DNA of 64,000 bases. Origin: Zootoca vivipara. Taxonomy: Eukaryota. The position numbers and the translations under genes are program-made. Below the pieces are notes generated by a model. That model had not been told where the DNA came from and made no database searches. It was given only the letters and a program-made list of their open reading frames with translations. Below are positions 14,501 through 54,296 of this stretch, in pieces (within the stretch, counting starts at the first letter, position 1; each line of letters begins with the position of its first letter). Location of the stretch: assembly GCF_963506605.1 (NCBI RefSeq), contig NC_083282.1:21080001-21144000 (forward strand), in the 5' to 3' direction.

Positions 14501-16089
14501 AGTTACTTTGTTGTAAAAGAGTATATAGAAATGTTGTACTCACACTGCCCATTAAGATCCCTATTAAAAGCCACCTATCAAGAGGAATACAGTAGCTTCT
14601 TTTTACAAAGCATCTGACAAGTTACTTTAGTGATAAATTTATAGAGTGCCATAACTAGTTTGGTGTGTACAAAGGGGCTTTGGACATGTTTCTCCAACAG
14701 CATTTCCTCATGGCATATAGCAAACCGCTTTTTAATATGAGGAGGTATGGAGGTAAGCTGTACAAAGGGGGAAAGTCCAAAATTCCACTGAGCCTAGCTA
14801 ACAGCATAACAACTGTGCCATGCTCTTGTGCACAGATGCTCCAAGATTCTAAAAGATATTATAACAGCATTGTAGCTAAAATTGTATAGAATTGTTTTAA
14901 ATAGCCTGCTGAAGAAACTAAGTTAGTAACAGAATATGCAGAATGAAACGGAAAGGGGCTCTGGCCTGCCTAGCCCATGTCCTCTACACTTCTATAAGTT
15001 TCTGTAGTTCAAAACCTTTAAAACTCTTTAACAAAAACCTAAAATAGCACACCTTCAAAGCTGAAATATTCAGCTACTGCTACATTCAATTATTTCCATG
15101 TATGAAATGTTCCCTTATTAGAGTGCCGTTTTAGTGTACAGATGAGGTGTCACTGTAACACTTTTCAAGATGAAGAGGAGTCTTGGAATATTTTATTTCC
15201 CAGGGGAGTTAATGGAAACTAAACCCCAAGCCGCAGTAGCTTCCTTTGTGTGTATCTTCCCCCACTCCTCCCACCACTTTGGACTTGAGAGCAGCAGTGT
15301 GGAGACAATGAGCATTCTGTGCACAACGCCCACACGGATTGGCTGGGCTCCCCCCAATACCCCATGATGTAATGTGGTTGGAATGTGCCGGGACTTTGAG
15401 CTGGAAGGGGTGGGGGACAGGGGTGCTATTTCTCATCTGTTTCCCAGACCAAGTGGGTTCAGTAAATTAACATGATGCCAAATCTCACTACCTTTCTCAT
15501 ACTTCTGTTTAGTATGAAATTGATTTTTTTTAAGCCTGAGAGCCAGTGCCATTCCCATCTCAATACATCACAGTGTTTGGGAAAATATGACTGCATACAA
15601 GAGTGTACAGGAAATGTGTAGGTGAGGAGATAGTATCAAATATAGGTGCTGAGGGGTGCTAAAAGACTAGCCTAACAGAAGTGTGGATGGGAAGGCTATA
15701 CATTGGGGGCAAATAAGGCAGAATTCAGAGAAAGCTGCAACCGTGTCCCATTCCCATTTGTTTTTTTTAATCATCCTTTCTCCACAAACAAGAAGTCCAT
15801 ACCTTCACAGCAAACTTCATCCTTGCTGGCATTTTAATCTGACAACTGCCAGGGTTTTAAAAGTGACCTCCATTTCAGAAATCAATCTGCCCTCTGTATA
15901 ACAGAGTCTTTGGTACTGGTCTTTTAAATGCTGTTATCGGGAGATTGATTTAAAAAACAACAACAAAAAACCCTAAAAGTACAAACTTCCTCGCCCTAGC
16001 CGCCTAGTCCTGTTTTGAGAGGAGAGCTCTGCGTCCACAGACTTGTTAAGGGGCAATCAGAAGAAGTAACCCAGGGAGGGAGGCAGGGA

Positions 16090-18010
16090 GAGTGCGTGCA
16101 CCAGCCATCTCCTTAGCACACCATCCTGCCTGGCGCTCGCTAGCTCTAGACTGGAGCCACGTAGGCTGGGATCACCTCGCGCTCCCCCTGCTGCTGCTGC
16201 CGCCATCTCCCGAGCCTGGGTGGGTCCCGCAAGCCGGGCTCCTAGAGAAACGAGGTGGAAATCTTTTAAGGCAGCAGCAGCAGCTCCACACTAGTCCCCC
16301 CCCCACCGCACGTCAGAAGGCGCAGTCACGAGCGCGTCCCGAAGCCACAAACCAGCGTTCCTCTTTGTTTGTTTAGCCATCCAGCCCCCCCCCCCGCTCC
16401 CGCAACCCCACTTCCACCTCCCTCCGCTTTTCTCTTCATTAGACCCTAGCTTGTCCCGCCGCAGTGATTTGCCAAGAAGGAGCGGCTGGGCTGGCTGGCT
16501 GGCTTTCACCTCGGCCTCTGCAGTTGGGAGAGAAAGAAACAAAGTCTCTCTCTTCCCCCCCCCCCTCTAAAGTCTCTCTCCCGCACACACCCCTTGGGCC
16601 TTCCCTCTTAAGCAGGAGGGAAGAAGAAAGAAAAATTACACCCAAAACTTTCCCACACGCGAAAAGAAATACCCTCCTCGCCTGCGCGCGAAGTTAAAGG
16701 GAGGGAGAGAGGGCCATCATTATTCCCCATCCACGAAGGAGGCGAAGCGAGACAATTCTCCCCGCGACCGAAAGGAGAGAGGGCTGAGGGGAAGCCACAC
16801 AGCCGCTTTTGTCTCTCTGGTGATTTTTTTCGCGATACATGCGCGGACGGTTGGTAGCGAAGGGCTTTGTTTCTAACCATTTAAAAATAAAAATAAAATA
16901 AAATGGGGCGGAGGGGGTGCGGTGCCGGGAGTGCCAGCCTGTGATTTACCTCACACGTACATCTGAGGACGACAAGGAGGTCACACGTCGTCTTCTGAGG
17001 GAAGGGGAGGGGGGAGAATGGTGGTCTCCGCGAGGGGGAAAGTGGGGGCTCCGTCCAGTCCTCCTGCCGAGAAGCAAGGGGGCTCACTCGTCCTACACTG
17101 CCAGAGTTTGGGGTGGGGGCTTCGTTTCGCTCATGCCCCACAGTAAACGAACCCCCCCCCCATTACACACACACACACACACGGTTTTGAAACCACAAGG
17201 CTGGGGTAACCTTCGCCTTTCACGCGCCCCCCCCCACCTAATCCCGTGCATGGTGAGGTGATGATGGAGCAGGCAAGGGAAACGAAAAACGTCCGATATA
17301 ATAGGCAGCTGGGAGTTTGGAAGGGTTTCCCCCTCCCCTTTCGCCCTAAAAGTTCTGCGGGGGGGGGCGTCCGTTCCCCTGACCCTGAGGAGAGCGAAAC
17401 CATTCTCTCCCACCACCACCACCCCACTCTCTTAATTCCCCTCAGGAAAAGGGGGGGGCTTGTTGTCGCCCGCGCGTCCCTCCCTGTCCACGAACAAAAG
17501 CCGAAAGAGGCGCTGGAATCACCATCTTCTTCCCCTACCTTGTTCTTGACCTCGGCCGAGAGCCCGTACGAGGGGCCCTTGTTGAAGTGGGTCATGGCGG
17601 CGGGTCGGTGTCCGTGTTCCTTACGCCTTGTGGCGCCAGAGGTGGTAATGCTCTGGCTCGCCTATGCTGCTTCTTCTGCTTCTGCTTCTGCTTCTGCTGC
17701 CGCCTGCCTTCCTGCGCTCGACTGGGCGGCTTTCTCGGCGCTGCCTGAGCGAGGGAGCGAGGGCGGGCCGGGCTCGCAGGGGGAGAGGGAAGGAGAAAGG
17801 GAGGGACGTGGGCCAGGCTGCCTGACAGGGGAGCCCCGACGCGGAGCTGCCGCGAGCTGGAGAAAGTTCTAGTCCCTCCCTTGTCCGAAAGGGCGGCCTC
17901 CGCCGAAACATCCATTTCCCTTCACAGAAACTCAGGCGGCGAAACGGCCTGGGGGGTGGGTGGGGTGGAATTATAACTCCCCTCAGCTGGGCTCGTCGTA
18001 CCACACAACA
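16090..18010 (-). promoter_or_regulatory. CNN3: CNN3 CpG island covering the promoter, 5'UTR and start of intron 1
   Basis: Sharp rise in GC and CpG around exon 1. CACCC/GC-box-like tract at 17951-17968. (GAAGCA)n repeat near 17665-17700. TSS not determinable from sequence. Confidence 0.8.
17539..17595 (-). CDS. CNN3: Calponin-3 (acidic calponin), coding exon 1: MTHFNKGPSYGLSAEVKNK
   Basis: Translation matches the vertebrate CNN3 N-terminus. Kozak context GCCGCC-ATG. A phase-0 donor AAG|GTAGGG follows at 17538. Lies in a CpG island next to ALG14, as in human. Exon 2 (IASKYD...) was not found in 1-17538. Confidence 0.96.
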
Positions 18011-18805: not shown

Positions 18806-19655
18806 CCGTGTTTCTCATATTTTAAGACATCCCCCCAAAATAAGCCATGACAGGATTTCAAAGGGTTGGTGAAAAATAAGACATACCCCGAAAATAAGCA
18901 CTATCGCAAAGCCCCGACCAAGTGAGAGGCGAAGCCACGGGACCCAGCAGGAGCCTCGGTGTCCCCTGTGCGAAGCCCTGGGACCCGGCTGGAGCTTCAG
19001 CGCGCGCGCGCTAACCCCCGGGACCCGGCTGGACGCATAGCTGAAGCCGCGGCAGCTTGCAGGAGCCGCGGCAAAGCCCTGGGACCCGGCTGGAGCTTCA
19101 GCGCGCGCGTGCTAACCCCCGGGACCCGGCTGGACGCTTAGCTGAAGCCGCGGAAGCTTGCAGGAGCCGCGGCGAAGCCCTGGGACCCGGCTGGAGCTTC
19201 AGCGCGCGCGCACTAACCCCCGGGACCCGGCTGGACGCTTAGCTGAAGCTGCGGCAGCTTGCAGGAGCCGCGGCGAAGCCCTGGGACCCGGCTGGAGCCT
19301 CAGCGCACTGTGCTTGAAGCCCTTGGACTACAACTGAAGCCGTGCGAAGCTCCGACCCAGCGGGACCCAGCAAGAGGTGCAGCTCTTCAAAGCCTGTTCT
19401 GTAAGTGCACTGAACTCTTGTTGGGCTAAAAACATTGAGCTTGCACGGTATGCATGCAATGCAGGAAAAGTTTGTGAAAAGCATGCTTTTATCATGCTTG
19501 TTTGGGCTCTGTTCTGCTGCTTTTGATCTCAGAAACCTTTCACTTGCTTGATGCACTTTATTAAAAAATAAGACATCCCTTGAAAATAAGCCATGGTGTG
19601 GTTTTTTTGAGGAAAAAATTAATATAAGACGTGTCTTATAATATGAGAAACACGG
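18806..19655 (+). mobile_element. TcMar-Tc2-like non-autonomous element carrying a GC-rich 101-bp tandem array
   Basis: TIRs CCGTGTTTCTCATAT.TAAGAC, TA TSD (18804-18805, 19656-19657), AAAATAAG(A/C)CAT subterminal repeats. Confidence 0.88.
18970..19305. repeat. 101-bp GC-rich minisatellite, about 3.3 units
   Basis: Units start at 18970, 19071, 19172 and 19273 (gcgaagccctgggacccggctggagc...). Confidence 0.9.
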
Positions 19656-31954: not shown

Positions 31955-32969
31955 CAGTGTTTTTCAACCTTTTTTGGGCAAAGGCACACTTGTTTCATGA
32001 AAAAATCACGAGGCACACCACCATTAGAAAATGTTAAAAAAATTACTATTTTTTTTTTTTTGGCTTTGTGTTGGCGTTCAGAGTCTCTTAATTAGCGTTG
32101 CTTTTGCTCCTTAGAACCGGCGCTCTTAGCTGCTCAGTTCTCCTTTTAACAAAGTCTCTGTCTTTAATGTAAAACACACCGCAGTCTCTCTTGTTCTTTT
32201 TCTCCCTTTTTAACTAACGTTTGCCTCGTATGAAATCCCGTGTTAACAGTTTTGTAATATTAGAAGGGCTTCCTTCGTATTTTCCCTTCTTTTCCCCGCG
32301 AAATACTTCACTGGCGTCTATTTCATTTAATGGGGAAAGAGTCCTTTTTTCCTTAATAAGCTGGTCGCTTCCGCGCTCAGCGTCAGTCTTTTTTTCCGGT
32401 TCCCCTCTCTTTCGATGGTTCTAATGACTTTTTCTATGTTTTATTTTGGGGTTATGTTAATGGATATTCCCCCGCCTTGCCCCCTCGGACTCTAAGGCTT
32501 GCTCGCCTTGGGTTGCTCTCCGCCTTGCGCCACGAGTTCACCTCGTCGGAGATGTAGGTTTCGGTGGTCTCCCTTTTACTGGCGCTGCAGGCTTCAGTTT
32601 CGTCCTGGTCACCCCAGGACTCACGGGGTCGCCTAGCCTCTGCGTTGCCCCCAAAACCCCTTTAGGCGGCCGCTTTTTTCACGGAGCTTCTTCAGAGCTC
32701 CGGCAAAGCGTGTCCGTAGCAGGCGCGAGGAAACCGGAAGCCCCGGAAGGCTGACTCTGCCTTCTTTCCCCACAGAAGCGTTTCCCCCTGCTGGTGCCTG
32801 CCAGGCTCCTCTTGGAAGGAACCACACGCGCTCAGCCAGCCAGCCAGCCAGGGATCCTGCAGGCGCGACGCGGCGGCTCGCCGCCCCACTGCCGTCTTTT
32901 CCCCACGGCACACCAGGCAACATCTCGCGGCACACTAGTGTGCCGCGGAACAGTGGTTGAAAAACACTG
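31955..32969 (+). mobile_element. hAT family A copy 3 with about 850 bp of foreign interior
   Basis: Arms near-identical to 7421-7626. Perfect TSD gtataagg. Interior 32048-32895 differs from the other copies. Confidence 0.9.
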
Positions 32970-34495
32970 GTATAAGGCAACAAACGAACAAACAAAAATA
33001 ATAATGGCAAAGCTGGATTCTTATGGATTTCCCCCCTCATATACCCCTTTAGCTAAAATTTCAAGTGTTATGTGTGAAGCTTCCACTCTCAGTCCTTGGC
33101 CTATTTTCCCCATCATCCTGTTTATGAACTTTAATTTAGAATGAAAACTATCTATCTATCTATATATACACAACACCCGAACAATACACAAAGCATCTTT
33201 GCTGAAATTCCTGTCCTTCAGTTTACTTGGCAGTTTAATTAGACTGACAGTGTTTCACAAGTTGGTAGAACGCATGTTGCTATAGTTCAGCGATCGTGTT
33301 TGTTTCTGTTGTTTTCTTTTTAAAGGTTGATCCTTGCCAAAACCGGATAATCCAGTGATTAACTTTGATTTATCTCACATAACAGCCACTGAGTGTATAT
33401 CATCATTCCCTCTTAATTTATAGCAGAATGCAAATTCTGCTGTGTCAGCTTCTCTAAAAAATCCATTAACTAAAATAGAATCTGGCAATTTATCGTTACC
33501 AGTTCTCTAGGATGAAAGCGAAGATGGTTGACAAGGACAACTCCTGAACAGCATGTTTGTGGGTAGGCGACAAGAAAAGAGGCACTACAGAAGGGACTTT
33601 GGTTTCCCCTTAAAAAACCCAAAAGGAGCACAATCTCTTCTCAGACTTGTCATACCTGTTTATGATGAACAGCTGCTTTAGACTTGGCAAAATACGGAAA
33701 GCATCTGTCTCAAATGGCAACAGCTAAGATTATTTTTTTCATACCACTCGCAACTTATACGGAACAACATTGGTTTTGGAACAACTTAAGACTATTGCTC
33801 CGGCCTACGAGCTTTTAACCACATATCTTTGCTTATTCTTTAATGCATATAGAAACAAAATACGGTTATGTACAAAGTAGAATGTGAACACTATTCCAAT
33901 TGAAGAACTGTCAAAGTGGAGTCTTTTCCCCCCACTATCCCCCATGGGGGATAAATTAAATTAGGTTGCAGCTTATGGGTATTGAGAAATGACTCTGCTG
34001 GGGAAAGGAATAAGCACCCGAAATTGATTAAATGGGTTAATGATTGAACTAAATCAAGCTGCTCCAATGTTTCTTTAAAAATGCCCCTTCCAGCCGTCAT
34101 TTAATCAATTGATTCTCTTAAGTGTCAGAAGCACAAAGCTAGCAATGGGTGACTATGATACTGCCACAGGAATGCATCTATCACCTAAAAGGCATGCACT
34201 CCCTTCACAATTTTATTAGGACATTTAGAGCAGAACGGGGAGGGGGTGGAAGTTCACTCAGAATGTGTCAAAGGCAGGGTGAGAGGCAAGGGGGTCCAAT
34301 ATGCTACAATTCTATAGCTTTTCCTGCCCTAGCTCAACCTACAGTTTTCTCAGCCTAACCTACCCCATGGGGTTATCGGGAGGGTAAAATGCAAAAATTC
34401 TATATTCACTGCCTTGAACTTGTCAGCCCAGCTTCTTCTGTGCTGACCAAGGTGGTCTGCATTTAAGAACAGCAGGTCTTTCTAATGGTTATGAC

Positions 34496-41605: not shown

Positions 41606-41836
41606 TCACACGATTCGCCCAAGATAGATAGACTTGGGATACTTTTCTTTCAGCGCAGGCCACTGGACGAAGAAATAATCTGAAAAGTGGTAAAGGATCT
41701 TCCCGGACAGAGACAGGTTTTCCACGCGGCAGATGCTCTCGACGTATACAATGGTTACATTTTTTATCCCCAGCATCCTGACCAGGAGGGCAGATGCGCA
41801 TATGGGAACGCAAGTTCCTGGGCCATTGCACAAAAC
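41606..41836 (-). CDS. ALG14: ALG14 UDP-N-acetylglucosamine transferase subunit, last coding exon (VLCNGPGTCVPIC...YVESICRV...QWPALKEKYPKSIYLGRIV*)
   Basis: ALG14 motifs NGPGTC, YVESICRV and VQWP. Polypyrimidine tract plus TAG acceptor ending at 41837 (phase 0). TGA stop at 41606-41608. Upstream exons were not found in the window. Confidence 0.96.
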   Translation of the reverse strand, partial: VLCNGPGTCVPICASALLVRMLGIKNVTIVYVESICRVENLSLSGKILYHFSDYFFVQWPALKEKYPKSIYLGRIV

Positions 41837-42599
41837 CTAAAAAGAAAAAAGAAAAAATGCCATACAGAAAATTAAATTTCAAAACCCCACCATTAATGGA
41901 GAGTGCAAGGATAAATCCCATCAGTCATACAGGACAATAAAAGAACAAAAGTGAAAGGCTAATGCAATTTCAGTTCAAGACAAAATAAAAATGATTATTG
42001 GAAAAAACAAAATCATTGCCTTCTCCACTGTCAAAATTTGGGGTTTTAAGGTACAGAGAATCTACTATTTGCTCGTATTATTCTGTAAACTGCAATCTAT
42101 GGTGACGAATAAATGAAGATGGCTTCCACTGAGTCGAAACAGGGCTTAGAAGTTGATTCGCAGCAGTTCCCTGGGAAGAGGCCTTTCTGATCCTAGCCAT
42201 CTGACATCCATTTTTTCTACAACAACAAAATGCCTTGTGGCACCTTAAAGGCTAACACATTTATTATGGCTTAGTTTTCATGAACCAGAGTCCTGCTTCA
42301 TCAGATGCAGCTGATGTTGTTTTTGCTGCAACAGGCTAACACAGCTACCCTTCTGGAAACGGTTACGTTTTGCTATTTGTCCAGGCTTTCGGCAGGGGAT
42401 AGGTGCGTTTAGGGCATTTAAATTATTGCATACTGGATGTTGTTTTATTTCGGGTTTTGTGCTGCTGACTGCCCTGGGTAGCCTTCAGAGAGAAAGGCGC
42501 AGGATACAAATTGTACAAACGAAGACAAAACTTTTCTACAGATACTGAGGACCGAATCTTCACCCAAAAGTGTAACTTCCCCACCTATGACCCCTGAGA

Positions 42600-51100: not shown

Positions 51101-52332
51101 AAGAAGAGGAGTTAAAACCAGAAAGCTGCTTTTCGTGATTATGGGGGAAGTATCTCAGCTGTGGAAAATAATTCAATGGCAGCTTCTGCAAGTATGAAGG
51201 TAAAAGTATTAACAGACTGATTCATGGTGAGATACTAAATGATCATAAGAGAACTGGATAGAATATGTGAAATGGATTTCTTGTATTTTTAAAAGCTTTC
51301 TGCTGTAGAAAAGCTGCATGAATGATTTAAAGAAAAGACTCTGGATTAACATTTGGTTGCCTAAGGAGAAATTCATACTTGGCACAGGTAAGTGCCTATT
51401 TGCAGGCCTGTTTTAAGCACTTCCTGAGGCTTGTGATTTCCCATTTTAGGCCTGGTGCCGCCTGTTTGCTAGAAACCTCCTCGGGTGGATGAGAGTTGTC
51501 AGAATCACAGAAATTATGTGCAAGTAGACTGCTCAGATGAACAGTTGATTCAAGTGCTTGGCACTGGCCCTCTTTGACTGTGCTGTTTTGGTAGGGTGGT
51601 TGCCCCAAATATTTGCACCAGCATGGTGGGAGGCTGTGCCACAAGACCCTATATATTCTTTATGTTAAGATGCAAGAAAAGCCAAGTAGACGGCCTTTGG
51701 GAAAGACATATCTTAACGATAAGGACAAAAGAGCTCTGTATAAAAGTTAACTCTAAAATATAATTCGCCAACAGAAAGGGGAAGTTCTGTTTGAAAAATG
51801 CACATAACCAAACATGTATTAGAAGCAACTCCAGAACTGGCCCTATTAAATATTTTCCAAGCATATACAGGTATATGAATGCAAGCAGCTGCTTTATAGT
51901 GAGTAAGACCACTGGTCCATCAAGCCTAGCATGGGCTTTTCTGACTGGTGATTGATTAAACCTGGGGCCTTATCAGCTGCACCACTGAGTTATAGCCCTG
52001 CAAAACAAAGGTGTTTTTTTAAATAAAAAAAGATGGTGTGGAAAATAAATAAGTGGAGGATGCCAGATCCAAAAATCAAAACAGAATGATGGAAAGACTG
52101 AAGGAGCTCAATTAAACACACACTTTCCCAGGAACAGTCTTCAGGTTCCTCAAGCACATATCTGAAATTGCAATCTGGAATCCTTCAGTCTTTAAAGAAG
52201 GCTTATCTGGAGCAATGTTTTAAAGGGTGTGTGTGTGCTGCCTTTCCTAAGTGAATTGTATTGCTTGTTTTCACTATTGCTCAAGAAAGATGCCATAACC
52301 CTATGCCACTAGGAACTTTACATGAATGCTTA

Positions 52333-53784
52333 CCGTGTTTCCCCTTTTTTAAGACACCGTCTTATAACTTTTTTTCCTCAAAAAAACACACGGTGTCTTA
52401 TTTTCAGGGGATGTCTTATTTTTATTATATTTTTATGGTACCTATGGTTCCGGGCAGTGGGGCGGCAGGCCTCCTTGGCTGGGCCAGGAAGAGGTGATGC
52501 CTTTGTCTTGGTTTTTTAAATCTTTCTCCCATCCCCCCCCCCCCGCCAACTGCTCCAAAGTTCCTGCTGCTTTATTGGGGGGGGGGTGTTTTGCGAAATA
52601 AATGCATAAAGATGAGCAGGGCTGAGGGATCCCGCCCGGCCTTAGACAGGCCACCCGCGCGCCTTCCACCCACCGCGTGAGGCCGGCCGAGGGGGAAGGC
52701 CTCCGGGGAATGCGGGGCCCGGGCAAGGCAGCACCGAGAGCCCCCACGGCCGCCAGGAGACGTGACGCGCGCGCAGCCATCACCCTCGTCGCTGCGTCCA
52801 TTTCATGCCTCTTGCTCAAAGCTAGGCGCGGCGTTCACTGTGCTTGGAAGGAGCCGCGTGCCCATGGCTCGTGCAGCAAGGGCCCTCCCGACTCCTTCCC
52901 AGGTGCCCCTTTCCCCTCCTCCTTGCCGGTTCCGGGTGGTGGGGTGGCAGGCAGGAAGAGGCCAGGCCGCTGGCTCGGCGCTCCGCCCAGTGCTGCTGGG
53001 CGCTCTGAGGGCTCAGCGCTGCGGACCGCTCTGCTCTGCAGCCGCCGGTTCCGGGCGCTGGGGCGGCAGGCCTCCTCGCCGTGCGGTCCGGCGGCGCAGA
53101 AGGGGCCAGCAGCGCTCCCGCTCCCGCCTGTCGCCCCGGTGGCGCAGAAGGGGCCGGCGGCGCTCCTGCCGCCTGTCACCCTGGTGGCGCGGAAGGGCCG
53201 CGGGCCTCCCGCCTCCCGCCCTGCTTTCTCCCTCCTTGGCTCCTCCTTCCCTTTCAGGCGCACCGACCCAGACACTAGAAATCCACTCACACAAGCCGCC
53301 CGCAAAAATGAGCTGAGCCAGGCGGAGAGCGGAGCAGCGCCTTGCCTCGGACTGCACCCGCCTCCGCCTCCTGGCGCCGTTAACGCCGCCACTGCCACGG
53401 TTGCCGCTGCCATTTTCCTGACGGGAAGGGGTCTGTGGGAACCAGGGCAAACCAACACGCAAGTGTCGAGCTCTTTTGCCCGGCTCTGCCCTTTACTTCC
53501 CGCTGCTGTGGCTTGGGGCGCTCCGTGCTGTGTTGCTGGGCGCTTTGTCGGTCCCGCTGCTGGGGCGCTCGGCGGTCTCATTCTAAGCGGCGCTGCTGCA
53601 GCAGCAGCAGTAGCCAGTTCCGGGCACCAACCCAGCAGCCCTCCTTTTCCTGCCACGGCCGGCATGCTGGGTTCCGCTGTCTCGGGGTATGGCTTATTTT
53701 CGGGGTATGGCTTAATTCCGCAAAAGTGTAAAAATCCTGCTACGTCTTATAAAATGACTACGTCTTAAAATAGGGGAAACACGG
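52333..53784 (-). mobile_element. TcMar-Tc2-like non-autonomous element (1.45 kb) with CpG-island-like interior
   Basis: TIRs CCGTGTTTCCCCT.TTTTAAGAC, TA TSD (52331-52332, 53785-53786). Arms are homologous to 18806-19655 in the opposite orientation. No transposase motifs. Confidence 0.88.
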
Positions 53785-53907
53785 TACATACATAAAGGGG
53801 GGGGGGCACATCCATTGCTAAAGCTACAATGGGCGGTGCTAACAGCAACCAGTGTTACTTTTTCTCCCGGAGTGTTAATGCTCCAACTGTGAACGTTTTA
53901 GCAGAAG

Positions 53908-54296
53908 TAAGGTAAAGGTAAAGGGACCCCTGACAGTTAAGTCCAGTCGCAAACTACTCTGGGATTGTGGCGTTGCATCTTGCTTTACAGGCCGAGGGAG
54001 CTGGCGTTTGTCTGCTCTGCAGACAGTTTCCAGGTCATGTGGCCAGCATGACTAAGTTTCTTCTAGCGCAATGGAACACTGATACCAGAGCAGTGCACGA
54101 AAATGCCGTTTACCTTCCCGCCGGAGCGGTACCTATTAATGTACTTGCACTTTTGGGCGTGCTTTCGAACTGTTAGGTTGGCAGGAGCTGGGACCGAGCA
54201 ACGGGAGCTCACCCTGTTGCGGGGATTCAAATCACCGACCTTTTGATTGGTAAGCCCAAGGCTCAGTGGTTTAGACCACAGCACCACCTGCGTCCC
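53908..54296 (-). mobile_element. Sauria SINE, full length
   Basis: Reverse-complement homolog of 46253-46599 with (ACCTTT)n tail. Confidence 0.88.

Follow-up and report, generated by a model that had tools for sequence, protein, structure and literature searches.

How a block of CpG-rich DNA resembling the starts of host genes comes to lie between the ends of a DNA transposon is the question raised by this locus of the lizard Zootoca vivipara. The window (the whole stretch of DNA analysed, 64,000 nucleotides; G000:C7:21080001-21144000) gives the positions below wherever no contig is named. The element in question lies within the last intron of ALG14, because the next upstream exon of that gene starts just past the window end (Pfam Alg14 exons at C7:21121612, 21144160, and 21147672). 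Its ends and setting are as follows:

41612-41842, minus strand: last coding exon of ALG14.
52331-52332: left TA target-site duplication; the empty allele skips 1454 bases, i.e., the element plus one TA.
52333-53784: non-autonomous pogo element (DD35D, Passer-like), 1,452 bp, with TA on both sides and 23-bp terminal inverted repeats (TIRs).
52333-52441, minus strand: TIR (52333-52355) and subterminal arm, matching the 3' end of the autonomous element L207 (91% over 110 columns).
53688-53784, minus strand: subterminal arm and TIR (53762-53784), equivalent to the 5' end of the autonomous element (78% over 98 columns).
53785-53786: right TA target-site duplication, kept in the empty allele.

The two 23-bp TIRs differ by one mismatch (96% over 25 nt including the TAs) and are 100% and 96% identical to those of the autonomous element L207; TA flanks both ends in 55 of the 59 bounded elements of the family. 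In three of five DNA runs (X1, X6, and X11), contigs join 52330 to 53785 without the element and one TA, and the X6 contig (646 nt) has a depth of 55.7, compared with 58.3 in the flank. This joint is absent from the listed joints of runs X2 and X4. The empty site indicates that the insertion is polymorphic. Three other near-identical copies carry 0, 1, and 2 substitutions, the four copies lying on four contigs with distinct flanks, and 52333-53784 is a recently inserted copy. The interior (52445-53680; 1,236 bp) has a GC content of 0.68 and a CpG observed/expected ratio (o/e) of 0.74, against 0.41 and 0.12 in the upstream 1-kb flank and 0.47 and 0.44 in the flank on the other side. The preliminary description had seen a TA-flanked TIR element with a GC- and CpG-rich interior in AT-rich surroundings, and all of this holds. 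Long frames inside the element gave no Pfam family match. A high-copy SINE-like repeat stands immediately to its right (53910-54100), and a CpG-rich stretch elsewhere in the window (32400-33000) looks like the 5' end of a repeat.

In the genome, 1,262 sites match a 34-nt end pattern exactly (0 for a control), so the family has at least 1,262 ends; its copies exceed a thousand, and many of them bear the starts of other genes. Among 20 DDE_1 places fetched whole, six carry the TIR of 52333-53784 at both ends. These six elements (3.1-3.7 kb) contain an intact frame of 431 amino acids, differing by 0-2 nt, in which Pfam detects DDE_1 and HTH_Tnp_Tc5; the transposase triad is D174, D278, and D314, with a spacer of 35 (DD35D). 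This transposase likely moves the cargo-bearing copies in trans. Compared with the earlier label "Tc2-like", the pogo superfamily is the better assignment. "Passer-like" is used in place of Passer because a Brinker-type (Brk) motif was not reported by Pfam in the 431-aa protein (only HTH_Tnp_Tc5 at E ≤0.003). Other transposase-bearing pogo elements (L192-L194, L197, L205, L198, and L199) have two further TIR variants, and some of these have a SINE-like insertion upstream of the transposase frame. One of the two variants matches another element in the window:

18806-19655, plus strand: non-autonomous element of a sister subfamily; its interior consists of 101-bp tandem repeats.

The arms of 52333-53784 had been described as homologous to this element, and they do match it (85% over 93 columns and 71% over 94 columns), but it belongs to a sister subfamily with a different TIR variant, and its interior is 65-70% like the 5' repeats of its own autonomous type. 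It lies about 1 kb upstream of a minus-strand first coding exon near 17540-17596, presumably that of CNN3, which is accompanied by a true CpG island (window 16000-18000).

Between its arms, 52333-53784 is a mosaic of five modules:

52446-52490, plus strand: partial unit of a family-internal GC-rich repeat holding a recurring motif.
52491-52926, minus strand: TEDC1 5' end taken from the host; it comprises exon 1, about 130 bp of the sequence preceding the start codon, and the first part of intron 1.
52928-53212, plus strand: family-internal GC-rich repeats (a motif unit of about 125 bp, then three units of 45-48 bp).
53213-53499, minus strand: MPZL1-like 5' end taken from the host; it comprises the 5' leader, exon 1 with the signal peptide, and the first part of intron 1.
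53500-53680, plus strand: GC-rich module common to sister subfamilies (L052 and L106 types).

The TEDC1 piece matches G000:C7:9461145-9461571 at 78% with gaps, or 90% by substitutions. This donor is a CpG island without a TIR; its exon encodes, at 100% identity, the N-terminus of a protein named TEDC1, and downstream exons match Pfam TEDC1. The start codon of the piece is at 52780, with a frame disturbed by indels. The piece occurs in at least 50 places: 39 other places in one search (about 30 of which were examined for family ends) and 11 of 12 further elements. One one-armed copy (L275; G000:C4:25.04 Mb) breaks off in the TEDC1 piece and continues into the intron/exon of another gene.

The MPZL1-like piece, with its start codon at 53413, is 87% identical to G000:C4:63198001-63198220 and 82% identical to a paralogous exon at C4:63174309-63174605, neither of which has TIRs. 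Each paralogue fits a different part of the piece, the second being the better fit to its leader end, and the pattern is accounted for by this second exon; an inversion at the locus was considered and dropped. Sister elements L037 and L051 match the 63198001-63198220 locus for 765-828 bp, into the intron. Both donors sit in a cluster of single-Ig-domain genes on C4, and the best structure match of the downstream V-set exon is MPZL1 (E 2.4e-27). The cluster (G000:C4:63174000-63220000; L061, L065, and L117-L119) holds at least two MPZL1-like genes and an orphan first exon in opposite orientation, with a short duplicated stretch of the adjacent promoter alongside.

For the last module, no TIR-less place was present among the 40 candidates scored out of 115 (query 53500-53672), and 12 lower-ranked or sampled places that were fetched all had family ends. 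Two candidate donors, at C4:37.53 Mb and C9:73.88 Mb, were dropped for the same reason. The repeats at 52928-53212, for which no host donor was seen, recur in at least 8 of 30 sampled copies (the sample described below) and form tandem arrays in L142 and L144. A source of the family repeat or of the last module was not found in 50 transposase loci.

The recurring motif had been proposed as the boundary of stitched segments. Its copies at 52446, 52928, and 53047 stand, as does a partial one (70%) at 53616, and so do the three units of about 45 bp (53073-53197, spaced by 48 and 45 bp). As a general boundary of captured segments it is not supported: only the motif at 52928 lies at such an edge, where the TEDC1 piece ends, and of 70 exact matches in the genome, all 30 examined adjoin a family arm, with none in 13 donor loci. 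The motif also forms arrays in other family copies. It is a family-internal repeat, and much of the GC-richness stems from family repeats rather than host DNA. Elsewhere in the family, a 73-bp GC-rich unit is arrayed in about 20 copies (L049 and L050; C9:68.24 Mb and C7:28.51 Mb), and several subfamilies (L147, L155) have long internal inverted duplications (about 290-340 bp) of the kind expected from fold-back template switching.

The interior could have been simply the consensus of the family, present in hundreds of identical copies without a host donor. The first 30 end-pattern matches on C1, picked by position (15 of them seen over 1.5 kb only), contain 18 interior types, which contradicts a single consensus interior. 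Twenty of the 30 have a GC content of at least 0.55 and an o/e of at least 0.6, and the share of 400-bp windows that are island-like is 56% in interiors, against 0.6% in flanks and 2% in far tiles. In several types, family repeats account for most of the interior. For donor tracing, interiors were chosen by eye and 40 candidates of each search were scored. Twelve of 16 queried segments or elements gave donors, 14 TIR-less donors in all, and 11 of these are CpG-island-like, mostly gene 5' ends (background 0.6-2%). They bear out the suggestion of host capture of the Pack-TIR type. The island-like donors are TEDC1, MPZL1-like, and TAL1; a gene taken to be AFDN, a name that downstream RA domains (Pfam) back; three presumed from their peptides to be MYO1D, IQSEC2, and RFX7; what appears to be intron 1 of a PON-like gene at an island edge; the 5' leader of a presumed protocadherin (PCDH17-like); and the loci at C17:40.75 Mb and C1:102.32 Mb. 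One of the 11 is counted as an island although it is an island edge with a GC content of 0.54 overall. Donors at C14:30.30, C15:39.47, and C5:90.92 Mb are not islands. Pfam gave no name for four donor first exons, and PDB searches with two short ones gave no match. Further candidates were dropped because they have family ends (L226, L230, L233-L236, L238-L243, L246, L247, L288, L290, L291, and L293), and weaker TIR-less matches (L227-L229; 69-77%) to a piece assigned to C16:40.15 Mb were left uncounted.

The junctions of 52333-53784 bear on how these pieces came together. Where the repeats meet the MPZL1 piece, the L007-type left part and the L037-type MPZL1 piece are identical over 8 bp; where the MPZL1 piece meets the last module, about 500 bp are deleted from an L005/L006 type at a 5-bp identity. 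The left junction of TEDC1 has no clear microhomology. Given these junction identities and the related types, the element was likely assembled stepwise from older cargo-bearing relatives. Elsewhere, two pieces from a single locus lie in opposite orientations in L138, and L159 has two pieces that are 600 bp apart, which looks like a multi-jump pattern.

We consider it quite probable that 52333-53784 is a recent non-autonomous pogo element whose TEDC1 and MPZL1-like first exons were captured at the DNA level, reshuffled, and moved by transposase, and now ride as methylated, decaying passengers. Host pieces would be copied in when repair of an excised copy, or replication at a stalled fork, switches template, and open, transcribed CpG islands would be favoured as templates. 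Cargo would then be reshuffled between family members at short microhomologies, helped by shared repeats, and the copies would be moved by the intact transposase of the family.

A preference for islands at the moment of capture is one reading of the donors; another is that capture is unbiased, and that GC-rich cargo amplifies or persists better or that conserved islands are easier to trace. AT-rich, non-island donors at 91-98% identity do exist. Moreover, four of the 16 queries (53500-53672, L132, L135, and L147) gave no donor among the 40 candidates scored for each (family copies only), and one of them, the AT-rich L135 type, is the commonest sampled type (6 of 30 copies). On the other side, each donor was counted once regardless of its copy number, and when the four donors tied to the GC-rich modules of 52333-53784 are set aside, 7 of 10 donors are still islands (p 8e-8 against a generous background of 5%). 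With four donorless queries and 10 of the 18 sampled types queried, the island bias is strong but its size is uncertain, and it would fit a bias in capture, amplification, or survival alike. Unbiased capture is possible, if doubtful. Among nine gene pieces of known direction, eight have the same orientation as the transposase gene (two-sided binomial about 0.04), a skew that in so small a sample serves as a lead only.

Capture as such, followed by methylation and decay, agrees with the CpG record. At 112 of 422 CpG sites of the donors the element has TpG or CpA, compared with 17 of 321 in the reverse direction (10 donor pairs), an asymmetry which indicates that copying ran from donor to element. 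Relative to its donors, the cargo has lost 27% of its CpGs. Among 61 copies in 8 subfamilies, private transitions occur 6.8 times as often at CpG as at other C/G (p 2e-39; the GpC column, which overlaps CpG contexts, was left out of the counts). Methylation raises the rate of CpG transitions, and by this established link the fast transitions suggest that the cargo is methylated in the germline. The copied CpG-rich cargo is thus likely methylated and decaying rather than made up of working promoters. The four youngest copies have no private CpG changes, and their high CpG count reflects youth and island origin. The preliminary description had taken retained CpGs as a sign of a young or unmethylated copy, and had supposed that the family delivers CpG islands to new loci; youth is upheld, whereas CpG decay leans, indirectly and by sequence, against unmethylated copies and working islands.

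The opposite view is that the family spreads working CpG-island promoters, some copies being unmethylated and starting, or splicing into, new transcripts. The cargo still qualifies as a CpG island (o/e 0.71-0.82 in each module) and has kept start codons and leader sequence, eight of the nine gene pieces are co-oriented with the transposase gene, and promoter-bearing Helitrons of bats reached higher copy numbers (PMC4224331). Against this view are the 6.8-fold CpG decay among copies, the loss against donors, and the RNA data. In three RNA runs of one study (about 6% of the data), the TEDC1 piece and the upstream flank have zero depth and the MPZL1 piece has at most 0.93, and reads on the arms mostly continue into other sequence, which is weak evidence against expression of the cargo. 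Spread of working promoters is thus unlikely. Somewhat less so, though still speculative, is the proposition that a still-active pogo family preferentially copies CpG-island gene starts, mostly co-oriented with its transposase, and accumulates and exchanges them among its copies, some of the youngest insertions being portable promoters or first exons. If true, this would be live, population-variable promoter shuffling in an amniote, and it would point to transcription-linked capture.

Capture at the DNA level has also to be weighed against entry by an RNA route, in which transcripts would have been spliced or reverse-transcribed. In its favour, most pieces come from the 5' part of genes that is transcribed, and eight of nine have a common orientation. 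However, pieces run past splice donors into introns, by up to 680 bp, which argues against spliced RNA and indicates a template that was DNA or unspliced; some pieces are purely intronic or upstream; and in the sole split donor the interruption is 1.3 kb of repeat-bearing sequence, taken for a later insertion. An RNA route is accordingly very unlikely, though nascent, unspliced RNA may have served as a template in a variant of it. That the "donors" are decayed element copies, or that filler entered dead copies without later transposition, is extremely improbable: several low-identity matches did prove to be family members, but the accepted donors lack TIRs, encode conserved first exons, and lose few CpGs, each cargo is present in many copies with distinct flanks, and the idea is contradicted for TEDC1, MPZL1-like, and TAL1.

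Gene capture by DNA transposons has known counterparts. A survey of Pack-TIRs found four multicopy cases among 370 (1.4% is given for multicopy cases) and noted that these are GC-rich in cargo; Anolis, the sole lizard surveyed, had 0 Pack-TIRs and 77 annotated DNA elements, and a frog element, Pack-hAT-N8_XT, carries the CAPSL 5' UTR (Tan et al., 2021; PMC8277862). Like the animal multicopy Pack-TIRs, the present family has host DNA between TIRs, distant donors, GC-rich cargo, and several transpositions with distinct target duplications, and a template-switch model (FoSTeST) has been put forward for them (PMC8277862). Unlike the surveyed elements, it numbers 1,262 or more ends, and a partial trace already gives 14 donors; single elements combine 2-3 donors, each type runs to tens of copies, transposase frames are intact, and one insertion is polymorphic. 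In rice, the gene sequence that Pack-MULEs prefer is GC-rich, and local GC rises where they insert (PMC5861414). They too are non-autonomous TIR elements that duplicate GC-rich gene sequence, but they are Mutator elements with 8-11-bp target duplications, whereas the lizard family is pogo, with TA and short TIRs, in a vertebrate (PMC5861414). With its TA duplication and the pogo transposase of its family, 52333-53784 has neither the Mutator ends nor the 8-11-bp duplication of a Pack-MULE. In the bat Myotis lucifugus, Helitrons such as HelibatN3 with NUBPL show a preference for promoters, 5' UTRs, and the first exons and introns of genes (PMC4224331); these vertebrate DNA transposons share the gene-5'-end bias and the many copies, but are rolling-circle, TIR-less, and largely older, whereas the lizard family is cut-and-paste, has TIRs, and is currently polymorphic (PMC4224331). 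Passer, a pogo group, has DD35D, TIRs below 30 bp, TA, one frame of 400-500 aa, and elements of 1.6-4 kb (PMC9976928). The lizard family fits Passer in DD35D, short TIRs, TA, and frame and element size; it differs in its host cargo, capture being absent from the parts of the Passer account drawn on (PMC9976928), and in a transposase for which Pfam reports no Brinker-type motif.

A literature search, mostly of open papers, found no report of a multicopy, multi-donor animal cut-and-paste Pack-TIR on such a scale, and no such pogo family in squamates, though Repbase/Dfam consensus entries may exist. What is new here is the scale, the multiple donors, and the current activity; Pack-TIR-type capture itself was already known. 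How DNA transposons gain host DNA, and why the cargo is so often GC-rich gene 5' ends, is a standing question, and the animal multicopy cut-and-paste cases so far are few and mostly old. The lizard family offers many independent captures and graded subfamilies whose junctions can be read; its intact transposase frames are near-identical and its insertions vary between individuals, which lets capture models and the fate of a relocated CpG island be tested directly. It also calls for caution, as many CpG-island calls and stray first-exon matches in the Zootoca vivipara genome are transposon cargo.

Two observations concern mobile DNA outside this locus. In the first intron of the MYO1D-like gene (L254:5479-9615), a frame of 1,379 aa is of the Ty3/gypsy type, with protease, reverse transcriptase, RNase H, integrase, and chromodomain. 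The transposase of L207 (L207:2652-3944; G000:C4:33.91 Mb) is 85% identical to sequence in a horseshoe bat protein model and 73-78% identical to sequences from a rattlesnake, frogs, and another bat, a likeness that hints at horizontal transfer; several of these models are fusions to host genes.
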